NCBI GenBank assembly: GCA_964589415.1
Contig: CAZPRQ010000001.1
Span: 11,368 to 55,489, forward strand
Origin: an uncultured Candidatus Saccharibacteria bacterium
Lineage (GTDB): Bacteria > Patescibacteriota > Doudnabacteria > UBA920
Direction: 5' to 3'
Length of the DNA stretch: 44,122 nt
Part shown: positions 8,840 to 35,081 of the stretch, piece by piece
Layout: every line of letters starts with the position of its first letter
How positions within the stretch are numbered: position 1 is the first letter of the stretch
The notes under the pieces: generated by a model
Told to the model about the DNA's origin: nothing
What the model saw: the letters and a program-made list of their open reading frames with translations, nothing else
Database searches by the model: none
Translations under genes and position numbers: made by a program

Positions 8840-10006
8840 CTATAACAGCCCTTTACTTTTCAGCCTTTTATCGAAAGATATAATTTTACTGTTTTCCACC
8901 TGGGGTTGGTTAAACGGGTCCACACCTCTTAAAACGGATGAATACACAGCAAAAAGCTGCCAAAACGCGGTAAATGGTCCAATCTCTTGGGCATTAAAAC
9001 CGTTAATTTCTACATGTGCAAAAGGAATACCGGCAATGCGCGCGTCCTCCATAGTGCCATCTGCCTCAAAATGCATGCTGTCTGCCAAACGAATCTGGTC
9101 CATATTTTTTAGCTGGCCGGACTTAATCCACACCTCATGAACCGGATTCGGGTAAGTAATCATAGTGTCATGTACAAATGAGTCTGTAGTTACAAAGCAG
9201 CCGCATATATTTTTTGGGCCGCCAAAAAAACGCTGATTTGTGTGATGCTGGCTTTCCGGCCCTTCGTGCGCGAAATAGGTTTGCCCCCTGCCTGACTTTC
9301 CAAAACTTTCATGGCACAGCTGGACAATTAACGCGGACATGGGAAAAAGGCTGTGCGAATAAAAAGGCATAAAAACATCGGTGTAACCTTGCTGTTCAAG
9401 CTGCCAAAATACGCTTGCCGCGTGCCAAGCCGGATTATCCTTTCCAAATTGCGCGTACAATTGTGCCGCGCCGTCGTATATGCCCTCAGCGTCCAAACCG
9501 GCTATCATGGCTGGCAATAAAGCCACCTCCGTTAGACCGGAAAAACGTCCGCCAATTGGCGGATGGTTTATAATTTTTCCGCCTAGCTTTTCCACGTACG
9601 CGCGCAAACTGCTATTGGTACCGGTTATGCACAAAATATTGTACCCGCTAAATTGGGAAAGGGCTTCAAAGACCGTTATATTTTCACCGGATTTTGAAAT
9701 TACAATAACTAAAGTTTCCTTTTCCGGCAAACTTAATTTTAACTTGTAAATATAATCCGGATCCGTAGTGCTTAAAAAATATACCTGCTTTACGGCCTGG
9801 CTATTTAAGGCGGAATAATACCCGTAAAAGCTGGTAACACTTCCACCATGTCCAATTATTAAAATATTTTTATACCCGGCGTAGCCCTTTGCCACATCTT
9901 CAATTAATTTAAAATCCGGCACATGGTTTAAAAACCCAACTTCTTGGGGTAAACTGCGGGGATCCATTTCTTCCCACTTAGGACAATTGTGGAATTGTAG
10001 TTTCAT
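8840..10006 (-). CDS. pgi: Glucose-6-phosphate isomerase (short form)
   Basis: SIS-type VIVISKSGENITV, PGI signature 1-like PPIGGRFSGLTEVALLPA, and signature 2-like GVDPFNQPQVENSK. Confidence 0.85.
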   Translation of the reverse strand: MKLQFHNCPKWEEMDPRSLPQEVGFLNHVPDFKLIEDVAKGYAGYKNILIIGHGGSVTSFYGYYSALNSQAVKQVYFLSTTDPDYIYKLKLSLPEKETLVIVISKSGENITVFEALSQFSGYNILCITGTNSSLRAYVEKLGGKIINHPPIGGRFSGLTEVALLPAMIAGLDAEGIYDGAAQLYAQFGKDNPAWHAASVFWQLEQQGYTDVFMPFYSHSLFPMSALIVQLCHESFGKSGRGQTYFAHEGPESQHHTNQRFFGGPKNICGCFVTTDSFVHDTMITYPNPVHEVWIKSGQLKNMDQIRLADSMHFEADGTMEDARIAGIPFAHVEINGFNAQEIGPFTAFWQLFAVYSSVLRGVDPFNQPQVENSKIISFDKRLKSKGLL

Positions 10007-10012
10007 ATAGCT

Positions 10013-10447
10013 TTAATTTTTTGTCTCAGGGAGCAGGTTACAAGCAGGGGTTTTTCTCCCCCTTTTTAAGGGGGAGTTAGAGGGGGTAAGTTCTTTGATT
10101 GTTTTATCGATTTCAAACATTACTCCTTCAATGTTATTCATAATATCAATATTACCAAATCTTACCAAATTTAATCCAAGCGATTTTAAAAATTTTTCTC
10201 TTAAATTATCATACTCAATTGCTTTAGAGCTAAAATGCGAATCTCCATCAGCCTCAAGCACCAATTTGAGTTTAGGACAATAAAAATCAACTATATAATT
10301 CCCAATACTAACCTGCCTTCTAAATTTATAGCCAAGTAATTGATTCTTGCGCAAATAATCCCAAAGGACTATTTCAGGCTGTGATCTGTGGTTCCTCAAA
10401 AACTTTCTTTGCTCAGTTTTTGCTTTGGTATTAAATATTTGGGTCAT
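10013..10447 (-). CDS. DUF559 (Vsr-like endonuclease fold) domain protein
   Basis: PEIVLWDYLRKNQLLGYKFRRQVSIGNYIVDFYCPKLKLVLEADGDSHF...LGLNLVRFGNIDI is a typical DUF559 core. The last ~25 codons read through the left flanking repeat. Confidence 0.85.
   Translation of the reverse strand: MTQIFNTKAKTEQRKFLRNHRSQPEIVLWDYLRKNQLLGYKFRRQVSIGNYIVDFYCPKLKLVLEADGDSHFSSKAIEYDNLREKFLKSLGLNLVRFGNIDIMNNIEGVMFEIDKTIKELTPSNSPLKRGRKTPACNLLPETKN
10056..10087. repeat. Palindromic element family A, left copy (inside the 3' end of the DUF559 ORF)
   Basis: CTCCCCCTTTTTAAGGGGGAGTTAGAGGGGGT resembles the reverse complement of 10449-10482. Confidence 0.7.
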
Positions 10448-10448
10448 T

Positions 10449-10482
10449 AACCCCTCCTAACCTCCCCTTTGAAAAGGGGAGG
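10449..10482. repeat. Palindromic element family A, right copy (between the alaS stop and the DUF559 start)
   Basis: AACCCCTCCTAACCTCCCCTTTGAAAAGGGGAGG. Inverted relative to 10056-10087 and closely similar to the revcomp of 15551-15600. Confidence 0.7.
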
Positions 10483-10491
10483 AACTAGACA

Positions 10492-12396
10492 TCAAGTTAC
10501 TTGCGCTTTAATTCTTCTAATACCCGCACTTGAGGCTTCTTCTTTTTGTATTTTAAATTTACCTATTATTCCGGTATGTTCTACATGCGGTCCGCCGCAC
10601 AACTCACGAGACACGACTTCGTCCGTTTTAGGATCATACGCCGTATAGACTGATACAGTGTCAGGATATTTCTCACCAAAAACGCCAATGGCATCTAACT
10701 TCCGCGCCTCCTCTAAGGACATAATTTCCTTTTTCATAGTCAAATCGCGCTCTACCCAACCGTTAACCAATTTTTCAACTTCTGCAATTTCCTCCGGGGT
10801 CATTTTTTTATCGTGCGTAAAATCAAACCGAGTGCGTTCTTCTGTAATATTACTCCCCTTCTGCCAGACATTCTCACCAATAACTTTACGCAAAGCCGCG
10901 TTCATTAAATGGGTAGCGGTATGGAGCCTGACAATCTTATCCGAATGACTTGCCAGCCCACCCTTAAACTGCCCGGCACTGGCCGTACGGGATAGGTCCT
11001 GGTGTTTTTTGAATTCTGTTTCAAATTCCTTTTTATCTATAACAAAACCGCTTTCCTCTGCTAACTCAGCTGTTACTTCCCAAGGAATACCATAAGTTTG
11101 ATAGACATCGAATGCTTCTTTACCGGTTATTTTTTGGTCTTTTAATATGGATTCGGAATTTTTTATTATTTTAGCCAGCTCTTTAAGCCCCTTTTCAAGA
11201 GTCAATTCAAACTTTTTCTGCTCCGTCTCAATTACGGCAAATATATTTTGTGATCGTTCCACTAATTCTGAATAACTCTCCGCATATATACTCACAACTT
11301 TCCCTACAAGAGCCTGGAGCCAATGACCTTGCAAGTTTAGAAGCTTTCCCATAACCAGAGTTCGACGAATAAGGCGACGTAAAAAGTATCCTCTATCCTT
11401 ATTTGAAGGCTCAATACCGTCTGACACCATAAACACGCTGGCTCTAATGTGATCAGCAATTATTCGAACTTTCTTCACCTCTTCGCCCGTCAGAAGTTCA
11501 TTCCCTCGTCCCAAAGATTCATAAAGCACATCAAACAAAGGCTTGAAGAGATCTGTATCAAAAATTGCTTGCTGGCCGCTTGCAGCCGCTAAAATACGCT
11601 CCAAGCCACCTCCAAAGTCTACATTTTGATTTTCGAGCTTCTTAAAACCATTCTCAGTTTTAACATACTCCATGAAAACGTTGTTGCCAATTTCTAAAAA
11701 ACGACCGCAGTCACAATTAACATGACAAGGCAAGTTGTGGTAAGGAGAACTTTCATGAATTTTAAGATGTTCGCCATAATCCCAAAACATTTCAGAATCG
11801 GGACCACCAGGTTCATTTACCGGCATATGAGATGTTATCCCAGCTCGTGACCACCAATTCTTTTCCTCGGGGTAATAAAATATCCTACCGCTTTGCATTC
11901 CATCACGCTCAGAAAAATCAACAATTTTGGCTTCAATCCCCTTGTTTGAAAATAATCCTTGCCAAATTCCGGCAGACTCCTCATCACGAGGAATTCCAAT
12001 ATCTTCTTTGCCGCGAAATACGGTGACATACAAATATTTTGGATCCAAACCAACATGCTCTGTTAGGAACTCAAACATCCATGAAATTTGCTCCTTTTTA
12101 AAATAATCCCCCAAACTCCAATTTCCGAGCATTTCGAAAAATGTAGTATGCCTATTATCACCAACTTCTTCAACATCCTGAGAACGGAAACACTTTTGTG
12201 AATCTGCAAGACGTGTTCCCTTTGGATGTTTTGCCCCCAACAAATATGGAACCATAGGTTGCATGCCGGACCCAGTAAATAAAGTAGTAGCATCATTCTC
12301 GGGTACCAAAGAAGACGAGGGTATAATAATATGATTTTTAGACTTGAAGAAATTAAGATACTTTTCTCTTAATTCCTGTGCTGTAATTTTAGGCAT
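10492..12396 (-). CDS. alaS: Alanine--tRNA ligase, short form ending after the editing domain
   Basis: N-terminus is ELREKYLNFFKSKNHIIIPSSSLVPENDATTLFTGSGMQPMVPY. Editing-domain motifs HTATHLMNAAL and CGGPHV are present. The ORF stops ~35 aa after CGGPHV. Confidence 0.92.
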   Translation of the reverse strand: MPKITAQELREKYLNFFKSKNHIIIPSSSLVPENDATTLFTGSGMQPMVPYLLGAKHPKGTRLADSQKCFRSQDVEEVGDNRHTTFFEMLGNWSLGDYFKKEQISWMFEFLTEHVGLDPKYLYVTVFRGKEDIGIPRDEESAGIWQGLFSNKGIEAKIVDFSERDGMQSGRIFYYPEEKNWWSRAGITSHMPVNEPGGPDSEMFWDYGEHLKIHESSPYHNLPCHVNCDCGRFLEIGNNVFMEYVKTENGFKKLENQNVDFGGGLERILAAASGQQAIFDTDLFKPLFDVLYESLGRGNELLTGEEVKKVRIIADHIRASVFMVSDGIEPSNKDRGYFLRRLIRRTLVMGKLLNLQGHWLQALVGKVVSIYAESYSELVERSQNIFAVIETEQKKFELTLEKGLKELAKIIKNSESILKDQKITGKEAFDVYQTYGIPWEVTAELAEESGFVIDKKEFETEFKKHQDLSRTASAGQFKGGLASHSDKIVRLHTATHLMNAALRKVIGENVWQKGSNITEERTRFDFTHDKKMTPEEIAEVEKLVNGWVERDLTMKKEIMSLEEARKLDAIGVFGEKYPDTVSVYTAYDPKTDEVVSRELCGGPHVEHTGIIGKFKIQKEEASSAGIRRIKAQVT

Positions 12397-14768: not shown

Positions 14769-15839
14769 TTATACCGGCTTAATCTTAAATTTTTGTGCGA
14801 ATTTTCTTTTCTTCCACATTAAAGTAATTTTACTCAGCATCTCTGGCAGTACCCGCAGGGTTGAAATTTCAAACAGCACTACATACAAAAACATGGCGAA
14901 TTCTCGAACAAAAAACTGCGGATAAAACCACGGGGAATTTTTTATATACATAAAGATATGGTTTTTGTAATTTAACTGCCTTATTTTTTCGGGAATTTTA
15001 CTGTGATGAGCTATGAATCCTAAAACATCTTTGTACCCGCCTTTCGAAGACCCGGCCGTACGTCCGTGATAGCCAATCGCGCTCGGAACAAACACATGCT
15101 TCCAACCTTTATTTGTCATTCGCCAGCTTAAATCCACATCCTCCCAATACGAATGGAAATCTTCATCGAAATATTCATAGTGGTTAGCGTTTAGCGGATA
15201 GCTTATAGCCTGCAAAGTCGAAGCACGGTACATAGCGCCAGCACCTGAGACCGCGTCAACAAAAATTGATGCGTCAAATTGCCCCCTATCTTCTTCGTGC
15301 TGTCCCCTGTCCCTCGCCCGCCCCGATTTGCTTATACTGACTCCTGTTGTATCCAAAACACAAGGGGAATCCTTGTGCCGCACAAGGATTCCCCTTGTGG
15401 GCGCGTCATCATGTTTTTGAATCTTTAAATCTTTAAATTGATACAGTTTCCCCGTCGCCGCCCCCACTTTCCCGTCCTCAAATACCTTTAGCATCTCTTC
15501 TATGTAATTCGGCTCTAAAATTAGGTCCGGGTTCACAAGCTGAAAAAATTCAACCTCTCCCCCATCCCTCCCCTCATGAGGGAAGGGATTAAGGGAGGGG
15601 TTGCAGTATCTATCGAATACCAAATTATGGCCTTTTGCAAAACCAATATTATATCCCGGATCTATTATTTCGACGTTAGGGAATTTTGACGCAAGTAACT
15701 CTTTTGAGCCGTCATTATTTCCGGAAATTACAGCTACAACATTAAAATCCTTGAAAGTCTGGTTAAAAATAGCCGAAAACACCGGTTCAATCCACTGGCG
15801 GTTATTGTATATTACTTGGACTATGGTAACTTTTGACAT
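14769..15839 (-). CDS. Family 2 glycosyltransferase carrying two in-frame palindromic-element insertions
   Basis: GT2 motifs: IVQVIYNN, NIGFAKGHN, LVNPDLILEP, DEDFHSYWEDVDLSWR. These are interrupted by peptide segments CNPSLNPFPHEGRDGGEVE and APTRGILVRHKDSPCV, each encoded by palindromic DNA. Confidence 0.85.
   Translation of the reverse strand: MSKVTIVQVIYNNRQWIEPVFSAIFNQTFKDFNVVAVISGNNDGSKELLASKFPNVEIIDPGYNIGFAKGHNLVFDRYCNPSLNPFPHEGRDGGEVEFFQLVNPDLILEPNYIEEMLKVFEDGKVGAATGKLYQFKDLKIQKHDDAPTRGILVRHKDSPCVLDTTGVSISKSGRARDRGQHEEDRGQFDASIFVDAVSGAGAMYRASTLQAISYPLNANHYEYFDEDFHSYWEDVDLSWRMTNKGWKHVFVPSAIGYHGRTAGSSKGGYKDVLGFIAHHSKIPEKIRQLNYKNHIFMYIKNSPWFYPQFFVREFAMFLYVVLFEISTLRVLPEMLSKITLMWKKRKFAQKFKIKPV
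15359..15399. repeat. Palindromic element family B, copy inside the GT2 CDS
   Basis: Perfect 19-bp arms CACAAGGGGAATCCTTGTG / CACAAGGATTCCCCTTGTG around a CCG loop. Related to 27824-27866. Confidence 0.85.
15551..15600. repeat. Palindromic element family A, solo copy inside the GT2 CDS
   Basis: CAACCTCTCCCCCATCCCTCCCCTCATGAGGGAAGGGATTAAGGGAGGGG. Continuing into 15601-15602, its revcomp (AACCCCTCCCTTAATCCCTTCCCTCATGAGGGGAGG...) aligns with 10449-10482 (AACCCCTCCTAACCTCCCCTTTGAAAAGGGGAGG). Confidence 0.75.
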
Positions 15840-15855
15840 AATTAAATTTTAGGGC

Positions 15856-17454
15856 CTACCCGCGGCCGCTTTTTGGGCCGACAAAACCTGTTAATTCATT
15901 TCCAATTATACCTTCAGTCTTAATATTTCTTAAAATAGCTCCGGAGGCCGCCAATTCTAAAAAGAAAAATATAAGAGCCTTGTCATTGTACCAGGTAACG
16001 TCAAAAAAAGCCGCCGCCGCAAGCCACAAAAAAACCAAACCCGCCTGCAGTACCAAAAACAGCCAGATTGTGTTTTCTTTTTGGTTTACTTTCACATATT
16101 TCCAAAACTCCCGGCAAACTGTTAGCCAAAAAAGCGCGAACAAAACCAACCCAAGCCAACCAAGCTCAACGGCGATATGTAAATACAAGTTATGAGCTGT
16201 AACGTACTTTTGCGGCAAATTATACCGCAAGTTTTTTTGTTCCGCCAAAAGTTCATATTTAACATTTGCCAACGCTTCGGGCGTAGCCGCCGAAACTAAA
16301 AAATTTGCCGCCCCGGTTCCAAGTGGATGCGAAATGGCATAGCGTGCGCTTTCTTTCCATATAAGTATACGCCCCGCGTTGGAAGTTTCATTTAAATCGT
16401 AAATGCTCTGGGCGCGATTTAAGAAATTTTCTTCAAACACCCCTCCGGCGCGTACAAATGCCAGCCCCCTATTTATGAGAGGAGAAATTGCAAATAATAC
16501 AACAATAATTAAAAGCGGCCAAAAAAAAGTTTTAACAGCTGGCCTCAAAAAAGTTTTTGCGTACGAAATTATTATTGCCAAAAGCGGGGCAAGCATTCCC
16601 ACCCACACGGCTCGCGTGCCGGACAAAATTAGCGCCAACGAAGCAAAACGGATTCCAGACCAAATAAAGCGGCGAAGTCTCTGGGATGCACCCATGGTTA
16701 GCGCGGCGCCTATACCAATTGCATAAACACACAAATAGGCAAACGACTGCGAATCCGGCATTATGCCAAACATGCGCAGCTGACGCCCATCGGTAAATGA
16801 AAACCAAGAATTGGAATACAGAGAAACGACGGCAAAATTCACTCCATAATACGCTTGTGTAAATGTGGTCGCCCAAAAAACCCAAAAAGTGTCCAGTGGC
16901 GTAAAAAAAGTGTAAGCTAACTGCCCAAAACCCGCGGCAATAAAAACCGATAAACTTACGGCCGCGTACCTAAAAAGCGCGAGCACCTGCTCTTTAGTTT
17001 GAATAGTTTGGACCATGACGAAATAAAACAAAAAAATATTAAAAAAGAACAAAAATTGCATTAGTGCTGGCAATCGAAATGACGACCAAATACTGCTAAT
17101 AAGTATAAGCGCGCCAAAGGCATACAAATACCGATCCCAAGGCAAAAACACTATGCGTTTTAAACTAAATTTATTTTCCTTAAAAAACCAAACTACAAAA
17201 AGCCAGGCCACCAGCGGCCGCCAGGCTGACAATGTTTCAAAAAAACCGTTAGGCACAATGACCATGGCCGGCAAGGAGGCCACAAGCACGTATACACCTT
17301 CCTCGAGTGGCCGAAAAACAATATAAAGCATTACAATGGCCATATTCACCCATACAAGCCAAGTTGGCCAGCCAAACACAGCCATTAGAAGCACGGAAAA
17401 TAGTTGCCAAACAACCAGTATGGCTATATAAAATTTTCTTGAAAAATTATGCAT
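15856..17454 (-). CDS. O-antigen ligase/polymerase-like (Wzy_C family) polytopic membrane protein
   Basis: At least 10 hydrophobic helices. AHNLYLHIAVELGWLGLVLFALF resembles the Wzy_C/O-antigen ligase motif. Overlaps the GT4 stop by 8 nt. Confidence 0.8.
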   Translation of the reverse strand: MHNFSRKFYIAILVVWQLFSVLLMAVFGWPTWLVWVNMAIVMLYIVFRPLEEGVYVLVASLPAMVIVPNGFFETLSAWRPLVAWLFVVWFFKENKFSLKRIVFLPWDRYLYAFGALILISSIWSSFRLPALMQFLFFFNIFLFYFVMVQTIQTKEQVLALFRYAAVSLSVFIAAGFGQLAYTFFTPLDTFWVFWATTFTQAYYGVNFAVVSLYSNSWFSFTDGRQLRMFGIMPDSQSFAYLCVYAIGIGAALTMGASQRLRRFIWSGIRFASLALILSGTRAVWVGMLAPLLAIIISYAKTFLRPAVKTFFWPLLIIVVLFAISPLINRGLAFVRAGGVFEENFLNRAQSIYDLNETSNAGRILIWKESARYAISHPLGTGAANFLVSAATPEALANVKYELLAEQKNLRYNLPQKYVTAHNLYLHIAVELGWLGLVLFALFWLTVCREFWKYVKVNQKENTIWLFLVLQAGLVFLWLAAAAFFDVTWYNDKALIFFFLELAASGAILRNIKTEGIIGNELTGFVGPKSGRG

Positions 17455-18592
17455 GCCGGGTATTATTTAAAATTGACAACGTTTCCTTCGCGCACTTTTC
17501 CCAAGAATACTCGTTAAGCCTGACATAGCCTTTTTGTGTCATGTCATGCTTGAGTGATTCATCCAGCAGCAATGCTTTAAGGGACTGCTTCATGTCAGCA
17601 ACATTTTCCGGGTTAAAATATACGGCCGCCTCCCCGGCAACTTCCGGCAGGCTGGAAACATTGGAACAAGCCACGGGCACAGCGGAGGCAAAAGCTTCCA
17701 ATATTTGCATACCAAAACCTTCATACAAAGCAGGCTGGACCAATACGTCTGCTCCTTTTAATATTTCCAGGCGCTCTCGGTCTGAAACATAATTTTTATA
17801 TATAACAATATCTTTATTGGCCTCCAGTTTTTGCAAAATGCTTTCAAAACGCCACCCGGGCTTACCTACAACCACAAGCTTATGCGGCAAGTCGGGCAGT
17901 TCGGTTTTTAACATACGAAAAGCGTCTATTAGACGCTCTAAATTTTTTCTTGGCTGCAACGTAGAAAGAAATAAAACGTAAGGTGTTGGTAATTTATTAA
18001 CTAATTGGTTTTGTGATTTGCTTATTAGCTGATTTGCTGATTTGCTTATTAGCTTATCAGCTGATTTGCTTATTAGCGTATTTGTTTGCTCAAATCCATG
18101 ATGAACCACAGAAACTTTTTCTTCCGATATATTGTACTCATTTACGAGATCTTTTTTAGTTGCCGAAGATACCGCTATTATGCGCGAGGCATTATTAACG
18201 GCAAACTTGGTTGACCACTCCAGAAACCAACGCATAAATGGCGTAAAGGTTTCGGGGTAATATTTCCAGGCAATGTCGTGAATGGTAACAACACATTTTT
18301 TGGGATGCACAAGGGGCAAAGCCGACGCGGGAATAAACAGGACATCAACCGGGCTGGTAAGCATTTCCCAAGAAAGCCTGACTTGAGTCCAAAAAAGCGG
18401 AAAGGGCATGACTTTAATACGAAAGTTTTTAGGCAAAGCTAAAAACCACTCCTCCGGCTGAGTGCGAAGGTATAATATATAAGAATTGACCTTATCTACT
18501 TCAGCCAAATGCAAAATTAGCTGCTTGGCGTAATGCTCAACTCCGGTTTTATGGGGCGTATTGGCCCGTTCTGCCTCTATGCCAATAGTCAT
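17447..18592 (-). CDS. Family 4 (GT-B) glycosyltransferase with a repeat-encoded interdomain insertion
   Basis: N-terminus is MTIGIEAERANTPHKTGVEHY. C-terminal EGFGMQILEAFASAVPVACSNVSSLPEVAG is the EX7E region. The insert LISKSADKLISKSANQLISKSQNQL sits between the two Rossmann halves. Confidence 0.88.
   Translation of the reverse strand: MTIGIEAERANTPHKTGVEHYAKQLILHLAEVDKVNSYILYLRTQPEEWFLALPKNFRIKVMPFPLFWTQVRLSWEMLTSPVDVLFIPASALPLVHPKKCVVTIHDIAWKYYPETFTPFMRWFLEWSTKFAVNNASRIIAVSSATKKDLVNEYNISEEKVSVVHHGFEQTNTLISKSADKLISKSANQLISKSQNQLVNKLPTPYVLFLSTLQPRKNLERLIDAFRMLKTELPDLPHKLVVVGKPGWRFESILQKLEANKDIVIYKNYVSDRERLEILKGADVLVQPALYEGFGMQILEAFASAVPVACSNVSSLPEVAGEAAVYFNPENVADMKQSLKALLLDESLKHDMTQKGYVRLNEYSWEKCAKETLSILNNTRHA
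18014..18077. repeat. About 2.7 tandem copies of a 24-bp word repeat, in-frame in GT4
   Basis: TGATTTGCTTATTAGC occurs at 18014, 18038 and 18062, separated by TGATTTGC and TTATCAGC. Encodes (L)ISKSxxxL x3. Confidence 0.85.
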
Positions 18593-21447: not shown

Positions 21448-21489
21448 CCCTGTCCTCATTTTTTACGGCCGTAAAAAATGAGGACAGGG
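21448..21489. repeat. 42-nt perfect palindrome in a non-coding gap
   Basis: CCCTGTCCTCATTTTTTACGG / CCGTAAAAAATGAGGACAGGG, 21-nt arms with no loop. Confidence 0.9.
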
Positions 21490-21632: not shown

Positions 21633-21666
21633 ATCAACTAAGTTCGCAATTGCGAACTTAGTTGAT
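21633..21666. repeat. 34-nt perfect palindrome in a non-coding gap
   Basis: ATCAACTAAGTTCGCAA / TTGCGAACTTAGTTGAT, 17-nt arms with no loop. Confidence 0.9.
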
Positions 21667-26506: not shown

Positions 26507-27664
26507 CTATTTCGCTTCCCAACTGGTTTTTATTATTGTCTCCAGATCGCTGTATTTTAGCGAAAAACGCAACAAATTTTTCATTCGTTCATCATTGGCA
26601 ACAGTAACGGGCGCGTCGCCTATTCTGCGCGGCCCGATTTCCATGGGAATTATGCGGTTTAAAATCTCAGAAGCGCAATTAACAACCTGCTCCACGCTAT
26701 AACCCCTGCCGGTGCCAATATTAATTACAGAAAAATTATCCAACTCCGGCATGTGTAAAATGGCCGCGGTATGCGCTTGGGCAATGTCCAGTACGTGCAC
26801 ATAATCCCGAACGCATGTACCGTCAAAAGTATCATAATCGTTCCCAAAAACAGTAAGATGCGGCTTTTCACCCCGGGCCACTTTTAAAACATTTGGAATT
26901 AAATGGCTTTCGTGGGCAGAGCTAATGCTGCCGTCAAAATCAGTCCCGCACGCGTTGAAATAGCGGAAAACAACCGCCTGAAAACCGGAAAATTGACAAT
27001 AATACTCAATCAATTTTTCAGCCAAAAATTTGGAATAGGCATATGGATTATTTGGATCCAAACTTGCCGTTTCCCTAATTGGCATTTCCTGCTGCTGCCC
27101 ATACACTGCCGCGGTGGATGAAAAAACAATTTTTTTCACTCCGGATTCATCCATTGCCTTTAACAGTACAGCCGTATTTAAAACGTTATTGCTTAAATAA
27201 TCGCCGGGCTTTTCAACAGACTCGCCGACTTCTATGCTGGCTGCCATATGAATGACAAAATCTATATGCTCATTGGCAAACACGTCGCGAAGTAAATTCA
27301 TGTCCCCCACATTACCCTCTATAAACTTTGCCTCCGCGGGTATATTTTCTCTTTTGCCTGTGGAAAGATTGTCCAAAACAACTATTTTATGGCCGGCTTT
27401 TAAAAGGCTCCTCGCCACGTGCGCGCCAATATACCCGGCCCCGCCCGTAACCAAAACCGTGCATGAAATTTTCTCATTTTCTGAATTACTGATTTTCTGA
27501 TTTTCCGATTGGCTTATAAGCTTATTTGCCGATTCGCTTATTAACTCATTGTATTTTTCTAAAGTCAAAACCACGGCTTCCGGCTTTTCGTGTACGCTTA
27601 ATAAAATTCCCCCTCCCCGCTGTTTAACTTCGGCTATTAAATCTTCCAAATATTTATTGTCCAT
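26507..27664 (-). CDS. galE: UDP-glucose 4-epimerase fused to a ~45-aa N-terminal module through a word-repeat linker
   Basis: VLVTGGAGYIGAHVARSLLKAGHKIVVLDNLSTG and the YxxxK region (YAYSKFLAEK) are typical GalE motifs. They are preceded by MDNKYLEDLIAEVKQRGGGILLSVHEKPEAVVLTLEKYNEL plus ISESANKLISQSENQKISNSENEKIS. Confidence 0.85.
   Translation of the reverse strand: MDNKYLEDLIAEVKQRGGGILLSVHEKPEAVVLTLEKYNELISESANKLISQSENQKISNSENEKISCTVLVTGGAGYIGAHVARSLLKAGHKIVVLDNLSTGKRENIPAEAKFIEGNVGDMNLLRDVFANEHIDFVIHMAASIEVGESVEKPGDYLSNNVLNTAVLLKAMDESGVKKIVFSSTAAVYGQQQEMPIRETASLDPNNPYAYSKFLAEKLIEYYCQFSGFQAVVFRYFNACGTDFDGSISSAHESHLIPNVLKVARGEKPHLTVFGNDYDTFDGTCVRDYVHVLDIAQAHTAAILHMPELDNFSVINIGTGRGYSVEQVVNCASEILNRIIPMEIGPRRIGDAPVTVANDERMKNLLRFSLKYSDLETIIKTSWEAK
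27480..27545. repeat. Word repeat related to 18014-18077, in-frame in the galE ORF
   Basis: GATTGGCTTATAAGC and GATTCGCTTATTAAC each match GATTTGCTTATTAGC at 13/15, plus CTGATTTTC words. Confidence 0.7.
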
Positions 27665-27823: not shown

Positions 27824-27866
27824 TCAAGGATTCCCTTTACTAGGGCCTAGCAAGGGGGATCCTTGA
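27824..27866. repeat. Palindromic element family B, intergenic copy
   Basis: TCAAGGATTCCCTT (27824-27837) pairs with AAGGGGGATCCTTGA (27852-27866). Shares the AAGGATTCCC/GGGAATCCTT core with 15359-15399. Confidence 0.7.
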
Positions 27867-27875
27867 GATTACAAT

Positions 27876-27906
27876 AAAACCGTCCCGGCGTTGGCGGGAC
27901 GGTTTT
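27876..27906 (-). terminator. Bidirectional rho-independent terminator after the giant surface-protein gene
   Basis: AAAACCGTCCCG (27876-27887) / CGGGACGGTTTT (27895-27906), 12-bp arms, 7-nt loop, with A/T runs on both sides. Confidence 0.85.
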
Positions 27907-27922
27907 ATATTTTATTTATGTA

Positions 27923-35044: not shown

Positions 35045-35081
35045 AGAGAGGGTCATCTTCTCAGAGAAGATGACCCTCTCT
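35045..35081. repeat. 37-nt near-perfect palindrome downstream of the sortase gene
   Basis: AGAGAGGGTCATCTTCTC-A-GAGAAGATGACCCTCTCT, 18-nt arms. No T-run on either strand. Confidence 0.85.

Follow-up and report, generated by a model that had tools for sequence, protein, structure and literature searches.

Two families of short palindromic repeats in frame in variable loops of a Patescibacteria glycosyltransferase gene

The window analysed here is a stretch of 44,122 nucleotides (nt) from contig CAZPRQ010000001.1 of a Doudnabacteria-type Patescibacterium, and it contains a gene for a family-2 glycosyltransferase (GT2) in which two palindromic DNA elements, termed family A and family B, lie in frame. 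The two elements likely belong to two unrelated families of short dispersed hairpin mobile repeats, each occupying a variable loop of the enzyme. The gene, the features within it and the three variable sites of the encoded protein are as follows.

14769 to 15839, minus strand: host gene, GT2 with a GT-A fold, 356 amino acids, open reading frame (ORF) intact
15551 to 15603, minus strand: family A element, 53 nt, encoding residues 79-97, CNPSLNPFPHEGRDGGEVE, in variable loop 1
15420 to 15440, minus strand: older low-complexity layer of loop 2, AATCTTTAAATCTTTAAATTG, read as QFKDLKI
15359 to 15399, unstranded: family B element, perfect 20+1+20 palindrome, encoding residues 147-161, PTRGILVRHKDSPCV, in variable loop 2
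Site 1 (variable loop 1): after GHNLVF.KY
Site 2 (variable loop 2): between GKL and LDTTGV
Site 3: after the ALxA helix

The host glycosyltransferase and its two inserts

The protein matches PF00535 with 36.1 bits (cut-off 23.3), and PF13632 and PF13641 likewise above their cut-offs. A protein database search gives 640 homologs of 312-407 residues, the named ones being GT2 enzymes of Candidatus Doudnabacteria or Patescibacteria. In an alignment of 120 of these homologs the variation in length is confined to the three sites, and both inserts are placed between invariant columns (F75/F99 and L132/D163) and leave the frame open, as the first-pass annotation of this DNA had described. The AlphaFold (AF2) model built on the same 120-sequence alignment has a mean predicted local distance difference test score (pLDDT) of 89.3 and a predicted TM-score (pTM) of 0.89, with block means of pLDDT dropping below about 62 nowhere but around residues ~80-97 and ~135-160, the positions of the two inserts. 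A PDB sequence search with the protein returned only a weak N-terminal match to TagF, and a fold search was used in its place; Foldseek with the model identifies the GT-A fold enzymes SpsA, TarP, K4CP and ppGalNAcT at probability 1.0. Residues N103-P104-D105 and D225 are invariant across the 120 homologs, and the NPD sequence (N103-P104-D105) would replace the DXD metal/nucleotide motif of the GT-A fold. Both target loops are exposed and dispensable, tolerating 14-18 extra and probably disordered residues, and the enzyme would be expected to stay active with its inserts.

The genomic context was compared across 63 GT2 loci from species-representative genomes (L numbers are locus labels). Orthologs at 46-55% identity have uniformly short loops, with seven residues at site 1 (e.g. 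AKSDSEF), 14 at site 2 (LRYDFENNKPLNII) and 12 at site 3, so both inserts are additions and not ancestral protein sequence. The closer clade (crown, Doudnabacteria-type) carries a wide range of hairpin and simple-repeat inserts at the three loops.

The family B element, annotated earlier with arms of 19+19, is indeed a perfect inverted repeat, the arms being 20 nt each around one central base. It is an inverted doublet of the self-palindromic 19-nt unit CACAAGGGGAATCCTTGTG with a calculated DNA fold of -21.7 kcal/mol (z = -10.7), and dinucleotide shuffles of the window gave no match. The family A element and its peptide stand as first described except that the element ends at 15603 and not at 15600. 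It forms a nested imperfect polypyrimidine/polypurine hairpin, CAACCCCTCCCTTAATCCCTTCCCTC-ATGA-GGGGAGGGATGGGGGAGAGGTTG, with a fold of -16.3 kcal/mol (z = -3.3). In a 60-nt sliding fold over the 44 kb the two insert sites come out as the top two, at -35.0 and -34.7 kcal/mol against a first percentile of -22.8, and no other coding window reaches that level of folding. The segment at 15420-15440 is the start of a FKDL(R/K)FKIEDF-type simple-repeat state that is whole in many orthologs, and in the gene family B follows shortly downstream. A search of Rfam at gathering thresholds gave zero matches in the window. An intrinsic terminator was ruled out for the in-gene copies because these have no T-run and are translated.

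The contents of the loops differ substantially between orthologs. At site 2, near-perfect hairpins occupy the exact position of family B in L001, L002, L004, L009, L010, L019 and L041, and those of L004 (CACAAGGGGCATCCTTTTG / CAAAAGGATGCCCCTTGTG) and L041 (CACAATGGGCACCATTGTG / CACAATGGTGCCCATTGTG) are altered on both arms. Unrelated hairpins are found at this site in L011, L018, L026 and L029, and degenerate tandem 7-nt repeats in many other orthologs (AAGATTT read as FKDLRFKIEDF; GAATTAT; ATGGAAC). Site 1 holds A-type polypyrimidine/polypurine hairpins in L001, L005, L007, L019 and L050 and a TCCGCC..GGCGGA hairpin in L030 and L031. A larger compound element with the ends TACCACCCC...GGGGGAGGTGGTA is present at site 1 in L010 and at site 3 in L012, L021 and L026; that orthologs carry it at differing sites is direct evidence that it is mobile. 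The neighbour-joining tree of the orthologs, which has no support values and was not used to argue for independent insertions, shows the GT2 genes bearing family B scattered among empty ones; site 2 may have been hit repeatedly, or one old insert may have been kept and homogenised. In the GT2 homolog P0058 the loop of the site-2 hairpin contains an extra segment, ITMGTIVQ[LRRPIGVGAPTEAS]VHNGAHCV, a nested insertion.

Family B as a dispersed doublet and its transposase neighbours

The family B unit reads CACAAGG-GGAAT-CCTTGTG, each arm of the element being itself palindromic (CACAAGG-nnnnn-CCTTGTG), and the doublet is composed of the unit, 1-7 nt and the reverse complement. All six frames of the element are free of stop codons. 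A scan of the 1.07 Mb around the 63 orthologs found one extra copy (L004) and the degenerate window copy only; dispersal of the family is evident only from a scan of public metagenome contigs using a pattern of 13 fixed bases and one free position per arm. The pattern is present at 78 metagenome loci, with two or three copies (the maximum) on some contigs. The free positions of the two arms are complementary in 78 of 79 copies (C/G 54, A/T 21, T/A 2, G/C 1) and the variant follows the sample, Ga0265316 contigs all having the A/T form and Ga0182027 contigs all the C/G form. The copies in GT2 genes likewise track the variant of their own genome, and in L004 the intergenic copy, 5.5 kb from the GT2 gene, shares its genome-specific arms with the copy in GT2. 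The segments recur in more than 60 independent assemblies, which stem from different projects.

The window itself contains one further element, which had been taken for a second copy of family B. It is real but only partly alike:

27824 to 27866, unstranded: degenerate family-B-like intergenic hairpin, an imperfect 43-nt palindrome sharing the 11-mer CAAGGATTCCC, arms in opposite order

This hairpin adjoins a terminator-like hairpin at 27874-27908. The placement of the metagenome copies relative to genes is distributed as follows.

Family B in long ORFs: 16 copies
Family B between convergent genes: 17 copies
Family B between co-directional genes: 17 copies
Family B between divergent genes: 2 copies

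This is the 3'-end bias typical of repetitive extragenic palindrome (REP) elements. Altogether 62 of the 78 copies lie outside long ORFs, a count from metagenome contigs with no complete genome scanned. Conserved genes carrying family B in frame are the following:

TypA/BipA (translational GTPase): in-frame family B at 10 loci
NAD-dependent DNA ligase LigA: in-frame family B in the zinc-finger loop
DNA polymerase IV (DinB): in-frame family B
M16 peptidase: in-frame family B
tRNA-dihydrouridine synthase (Dus): in-frame family B
MnmA: in-frame family B
Two more GT2 orthologs: in-frame family B

These in-frame copies use all three frames, giving the peptides QG(A/E)SL (12 copies), TRGIL (three) and KGNPC (one). 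No empty-site TypA was present among the TypA loci examined and a solved BipA structure served as the comparison instead; the insert forms a gap in the alignment to it where the G domain meets domain II. The TypA gene of L123 has an additional A-type insert (NPTPILPEGEGLPLGG) lacking in the nine other TypA loci, and the DinB and MnmA hosts (L109 and L130) contain further hairpin-type segments.

Family B is also found beside genes for Y1 transposases. Two copies in L098 are separated by 540 nt, and the intervening ORF encodes a Y1_Tnp protein (PF01797, 41 bits, cut-off 23) in which HFH and YIHQNP motifs can be seen. Among NCBIfam models it best matches the REP-associated tyrosine transposase (RAYT; REP_Tyr_transpos) with 51.8 bits, below the equivalog cut-off of 80. 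One of the copies lies in frame within the Y1_Tnp gene and the other is placed 7 nt after its stop codon. Y1_Tnp homologs at ~52% identity adjoin family B in L085, with copies ~30 nt upstream of, in frame inside and ~15 nt downstream of the gene, and in L114, with a copy 10 nt upstream. The L098-type protein has 2,887 relatives at E <= 1e-15, the named ones being transposases of Candidatus Doudnabacteria, Paceibacterota or Patescibacteria, or "REP element-mobilizing transposase RayT". The family B peptide was found in none of 120 RAYT homologs, so copies inside the gene, as in L085 and L098, are not the rule.

Family A, DUF559 genes and other repeats of the window

Family A is defined by the terminal inverted-repeat arms AACCCCTCCC...GGGGGAGAGGTT and an inner stem; it has no coding capacity of its own and no stop codon in three frames. 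Strict A-type hairpins, those with a perfect polypyrimidine/polypurine stem of at least 7, number 38 in 1.58 Mb of loci, with 21 inside long open frames, and L009, L155 and L156 carry larger relatives (75-125 nt). Further copies of both families are dispersed between genes and within other coding genes, in differing frames, as a census proposed with the first-pass annotation was meant to establish.

The likeness of family A to the flank of a DUF559 gene, 4.3 kb from the GT2 gene, is borne out, and an additional copy is found on the other side of the gene, the two A-like elements being inverted to each other:

10013 to 10447, minus strand: DUF559 gene (Vsr-like PD-(D/E)xK endonuclease; PF04480, E = 8.6e-31) in the alaS-pgi spacer
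10449 to 10485, plus strand: A-like element directly upstream of the DUF559 start codon, a hairpin followed by TTAGGAGGGGTTA-ATG on the gene strand
10054 to 10091, minus strand: second A-like element, inverted relative to the first, read as the DUF559 C-terminal tail ..TPSNSPLKRGRK.. beyond the Pfam domain

The upstream element provides the Shine-Dalgarno-like GGAGG of the DUF559 gene. The DUF559 homologs of L009 and L001 have the A-like elements arranged as in the window, and they are counted with it as a single observation since all three share the alaS-pgi position. DUF559 genes with A-like flanks in other taxa are listed below.

L142: Brocadiales
L146 and L151: two other Patescibacteria, upstream only
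L148: Kapaibacterium, gene bounded by a left end on one side and a right end on the other
L155: Oceanimonas smirnovii (complete genome), a single upstream copy and, downstream, two ~125-nt copies in tandem
L156: Chloroflexi
L157: Fusobacteriaceae, upstream only

All of these have A-like elements within ~200 nt, most on both sides. The upstream flank in Fusobacteriaceae, CCTAGCCTCCCCCTTGAAAGGGGAGGAAC, is nearly identical to window positions 10458-10485, and an alignment of 13 elements gives the common plan (AT)AACC..CCCC-TAA-CCCCTCC-loop-GGAGGGG. C-terminal tails of the hairpin-peptide type are present in 42 of 120 DUF559 homologs compared with one of 120 in each of the GT2 and RAYT controls. 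No parent insertion sequence was found for family A, DUF559 being its only recurrent neighbour. To our knowledge DUF559 is not a known transposase. No literature linking DUF559 with palindromic repeats was found, subscription journals being outside the coverage of the search.

The alaS-pgi spacer (10006-10495 in the window; compared at ~35 ortholog loci) measures 9-60 nt in many related genomes and elsewhere holds DUF559, an ORF resembling the four-helix-bundle "IVS protein" (L006, L018), other small ORFs (L003, L004, L019, L041) or solo A-like hairpins (L024). The spacer is a hot spot where small selfish genes land.

Further perfect intergenic palindromes of the window lie at 35045-35081 and 21633-21666. 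The first of these (AGAGAGGGTCATCTTCTC-a-GAGAAGATGACCCTCTCT) resembles the hairpin on both sides of a Doudnabacteria RAYT gene at L159 (L159:1440-1470 and 2152-2182), suggesting further REPIN-like families, that is, families of REP doublets forming hairpins, with RAYTs of their own. Perfect zero-loop palindromes centred on CGGCCG with unrelated arms of 12-21 nt (pattern ..TTTTnnCGGCCGnnAAAA..) occur at 21448-21489 in the window and at L004:10977-11018, L006:10963-11000, L025:11002-11037, L031:9163-9200, L083:853-888 and other places. Arms of at least 12 nt are found at 18 of the 732 CGGCCG sites in 1.58 Mb and arms of 8-11 nt at one. Several overlap the stop codon of a GT2 ortholog, so that the final residues (..HGRV*, ..HSRP*) are encoded by the palindrome. 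The conserved centre combined with variable arms is unlike a repeat family.

A third kind of repetitive DNA in coding genes of the same glycan cluster consists of in-frame tandem repeats with an 8-nt period and (K/Q)LISKSAN-type translations. One set, at 18006-18085 in a GT4 gene (17447-18592), lies in the linker between two GT4 domains, and the other, at 27474-27529 in an epimerase gene (26507-27664), in a 68-residue N-terminal extension before the domain. Two 39-nt hairpins at 11-49 and 1110-1148, 85% alike (CCCTCCAAAATTCACAAAATAATTTGTGATCTTGGAGGG), bracket an ORF at 91-1068 (325 residues, no Pfam match). The ribosomal protein S9 gene at 2207-2758 encodes 183 residues with the Pfam S9 domain starting at residue 63, leaving a 62-residue N-terminal extension.

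Origin of the inserts and relation to known repeats

The reading of the inserts as mobile repeats is built on their sequences and loop positions, the census of both families, the in-frame copies elsewhere and the gene associations, all directly observed; the chemistry of transposition we infer. In the most likely mechanism for family B, a RAYT-type Y1 (HUH) transposase would cut and rejoin the folded single strand during replication, and the association with Y1_Tnp genes makes mobilisation by RAYT reasonably probable. [quoted passage not shown] Copies arriving in genes would survive selection only if the insert length is a multiple of three and would need to be free of stop codons, which the six open frames guarantee for family B and which three frames would allow for family A. 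They would persist only in tolerant loops.

A number of observations weigh against this account. No RAYT gene lies within the 44-kb window, and the RAYT of L159, which is from the same metagenome-assembled genome as L009 and had been expected to carry flanking family B, has a GATGGGAGTCTTC..GAAGACTCCCATC hairpin on both sides that is not family B; a RAYT-family gene at L160 is flanked by a GAGGGGCACCCTCTTGC doublet. Such other hairpins at other RAYTs fit the known pattern in which a RAYT is paired with a REP population of its own (PMC3116915, PMC5581495). A GTAG/CGTC tag was not found beside family B, the flanks of 64 distinct copies conserving only (A/T)C...G(T/A). For family A no target-site duplication was detected, and between filled and empty site 1 two codons are replaced with no duplicated flank, the boundaries in these diverged orthologs not being base-exact. 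The arrangement of elements around DUF559 genes is not fixed between loci, and the involvement of DUF559 with family A, argued from association, is a tentative suggestion. Among 68 strong hairpins in 1.07 Mb (the 63 loci and the window), 19 lie in long open frames and 13 of these 19 are in the GT2 gene, indicating its three loops are a special hot spot and not a random landing place. In TypA orthologs the hairpin core is identical while adjacent codons differ at synonymous sites, which suggests constraint or homogenisation beyond simple selfish decay. This points either to homogenisation of the family B copies or to selection acting on the hairpin as DNA or as RNA.

The concentration of coding hairpins in one gene and the invariant TypA core would also be expected of selected functional structures, held in place by selection and not by transposition, which might be RNA or DNA signals affecting translational pausing, the processing of mRNA or its stability, or else unstable palindromes or simple repeats switching a surface-glycan gene on and off. 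The near-perfect hairpins kept at the same ortholog site through changes on both arms (L004, L041) and the degenerate 7-nt tandem repeats of loop 2, as in contingency loci, are consistent with such a role. However, the same sequence is found in intergenic DNA and in unrelated genes in all three frames, copies at separate loci share genome-specific variants, family B flanks a transposase gene, many orthologs are without any hairpin and the window has no Rfam match, so that this reading appears unlikely. Formation of the palindromes on the spot, by template switching (quasi-palindrome correction) or slipped-strand events with no mobile element, would suit a region rich in perfect palindromes whose arms are unrelated (the CGGCCG-centred ones, for example), as well as palindromes that are perfect almost to the central base and a loop 2 with many unrelated low-complexity states. 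It does not account for 15-19-nt arms that are identical at 78 unrelated loci, for one compound element lying at more than one site, for the RAYT and DUF559 associations or for the similarity of flanks across phyla; the dispersed copies largely refute it for both families, and we regard it as very improbable. The peptide TRGILV.HKDSPC is present in about a fifth of close homologs, as ancestral protein modules encoded by self-complementary DNA might be, but the orthologs sharing it encode it palindromically. Basal orthologs lack the segments, one and the same DNA is read as three different peptides in other hosts and the inserts have low model confidence, and on the ortholog distribution and frame usage such modules are already refuted. 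Assembly artefacts, the companion explanation, are at odds with the recurrence in more than 60 independent assemblies, and neither is at all credible.

Mobile repeats in frame in the GT2 loops thus remain the preferred explanation, and the earlier comparison with in-frame colonisation by Rickettsia palindromic elements (RPEs) is supported and extended. The ortholog alignment, the census and the structure model proposed as checks with that annotation all favour it, and neither of the two findings named there as counting against it was made. A broader reading, which we consider speculative and rather doubtful, takes DUF559 proteins as the partner nucleases of a cross-phylum superfamily of polypyrimidine/polypurine hairpins that includes family A, a second and unrecognised nuclease-repeat system like RAYT-REPIN, and has the REPIN- and MITE-like hairpins of Patescibacteria kept perfect over the long term in essential genes by homogenisation or selection in place of decaying.

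In-frame insertion of small palindromic repeats is already known for RPEs, ERIC, QMITE1 and Anabaena MITEs (PMC10969869), so novelty is limited to the taxon, the element families and the small size. As summarised in PMC10969869, RPEs (Ogata et al. 2000) are ~100-150 bp in length and belong to Rickettsia. Judged against that summary, the elements described here are similar in being palindromic repeats in frame in unrelated conserved genes of a small-genome bacterium, compatible with the fold and also found in non-coding DNA. In noticeable differences, they are three times smaller (41 and 53 nt), form near-perfect hairpins and occur in Patescibacteria; they are not relatives of RPEs, a distinction drawn from size and host and from the REPIN-like form of family B and the MITE-like form of family A. 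Candidate partner genes (RAYT, DUF559) adjoin them, and the loops of one gene are struck by several families across many genomes.

Family B is closer to the REP/REPIN-RAYT systems (Nunvar 2010; Bertels & Rainey 2011, PMC3116915; Bertels 2017, PMC5581495), of which the REPIN-associated RAYT groups 2 and 3 have been studied in Escherichia and Pseudomonas (PMC5581495). Cutting and rejoining of folded single-stranded REP by the E. coli RAYT is established according to work cited in PMC5581495. The shared features are an inverted doublet of a short palindromic unit forming a hairpin, dispersal mostly to the 3' ends of genes, a single Y1 HUH transposase gene flanked on both sides, and lineage-specific variants. 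Classical REPs are extragenic by definition and most have a GTAG/CGTC tag (PMC3733652), whereas about a fifth of family B copies lie in frame inside genes, including the RAYT gene, and family B has no tag, a spacer of 1-7 nt and a Patescibacteria host. Family A resembles bacterial MITEs (ERIC/IRU, QMITE1 of Coxiella, Anabaena; PMC10969869) in its terminal inverted repeats, inner hairpins, lack of coding capacity and presence inside ORFs, and differs in having no target-site duplication or parent insertion sequence found and a DUF559 neighbour instead. No prior description of palindromic, in-frame, MITE, RAYT or REPIN elements in Patescibacteria or the candidate phyla radiation was found in a literature search that did not cover subscription journals. 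Very small dispersed palindromic repeats of cyanobacteria are reportedly found within genes and within other repeats (Elhai et al. 2008); both taxon and sequences differ from the elements here.

The genomes of Patescibacteria are tiny and gene-dense, yet conserved genes such as TypA, LigA, DinB and glycosyltransferases bear translated hairpins that are, on the reading preferred here, mobile. Next to Rickettsia they would offer a second, independent case in which to study the addition of peptide loops to proteins by selfish DNA, and as candidate enzymes are present the mechanism is testable here. For candidate-phyla genomes the inserts lead to inflated and distorted protein families, alignments and structure models, and they yield odd "PLPKGEG"-type peptides in databases. 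The DUF559 link, if true, would provide a function for a very common domain of unknown function.

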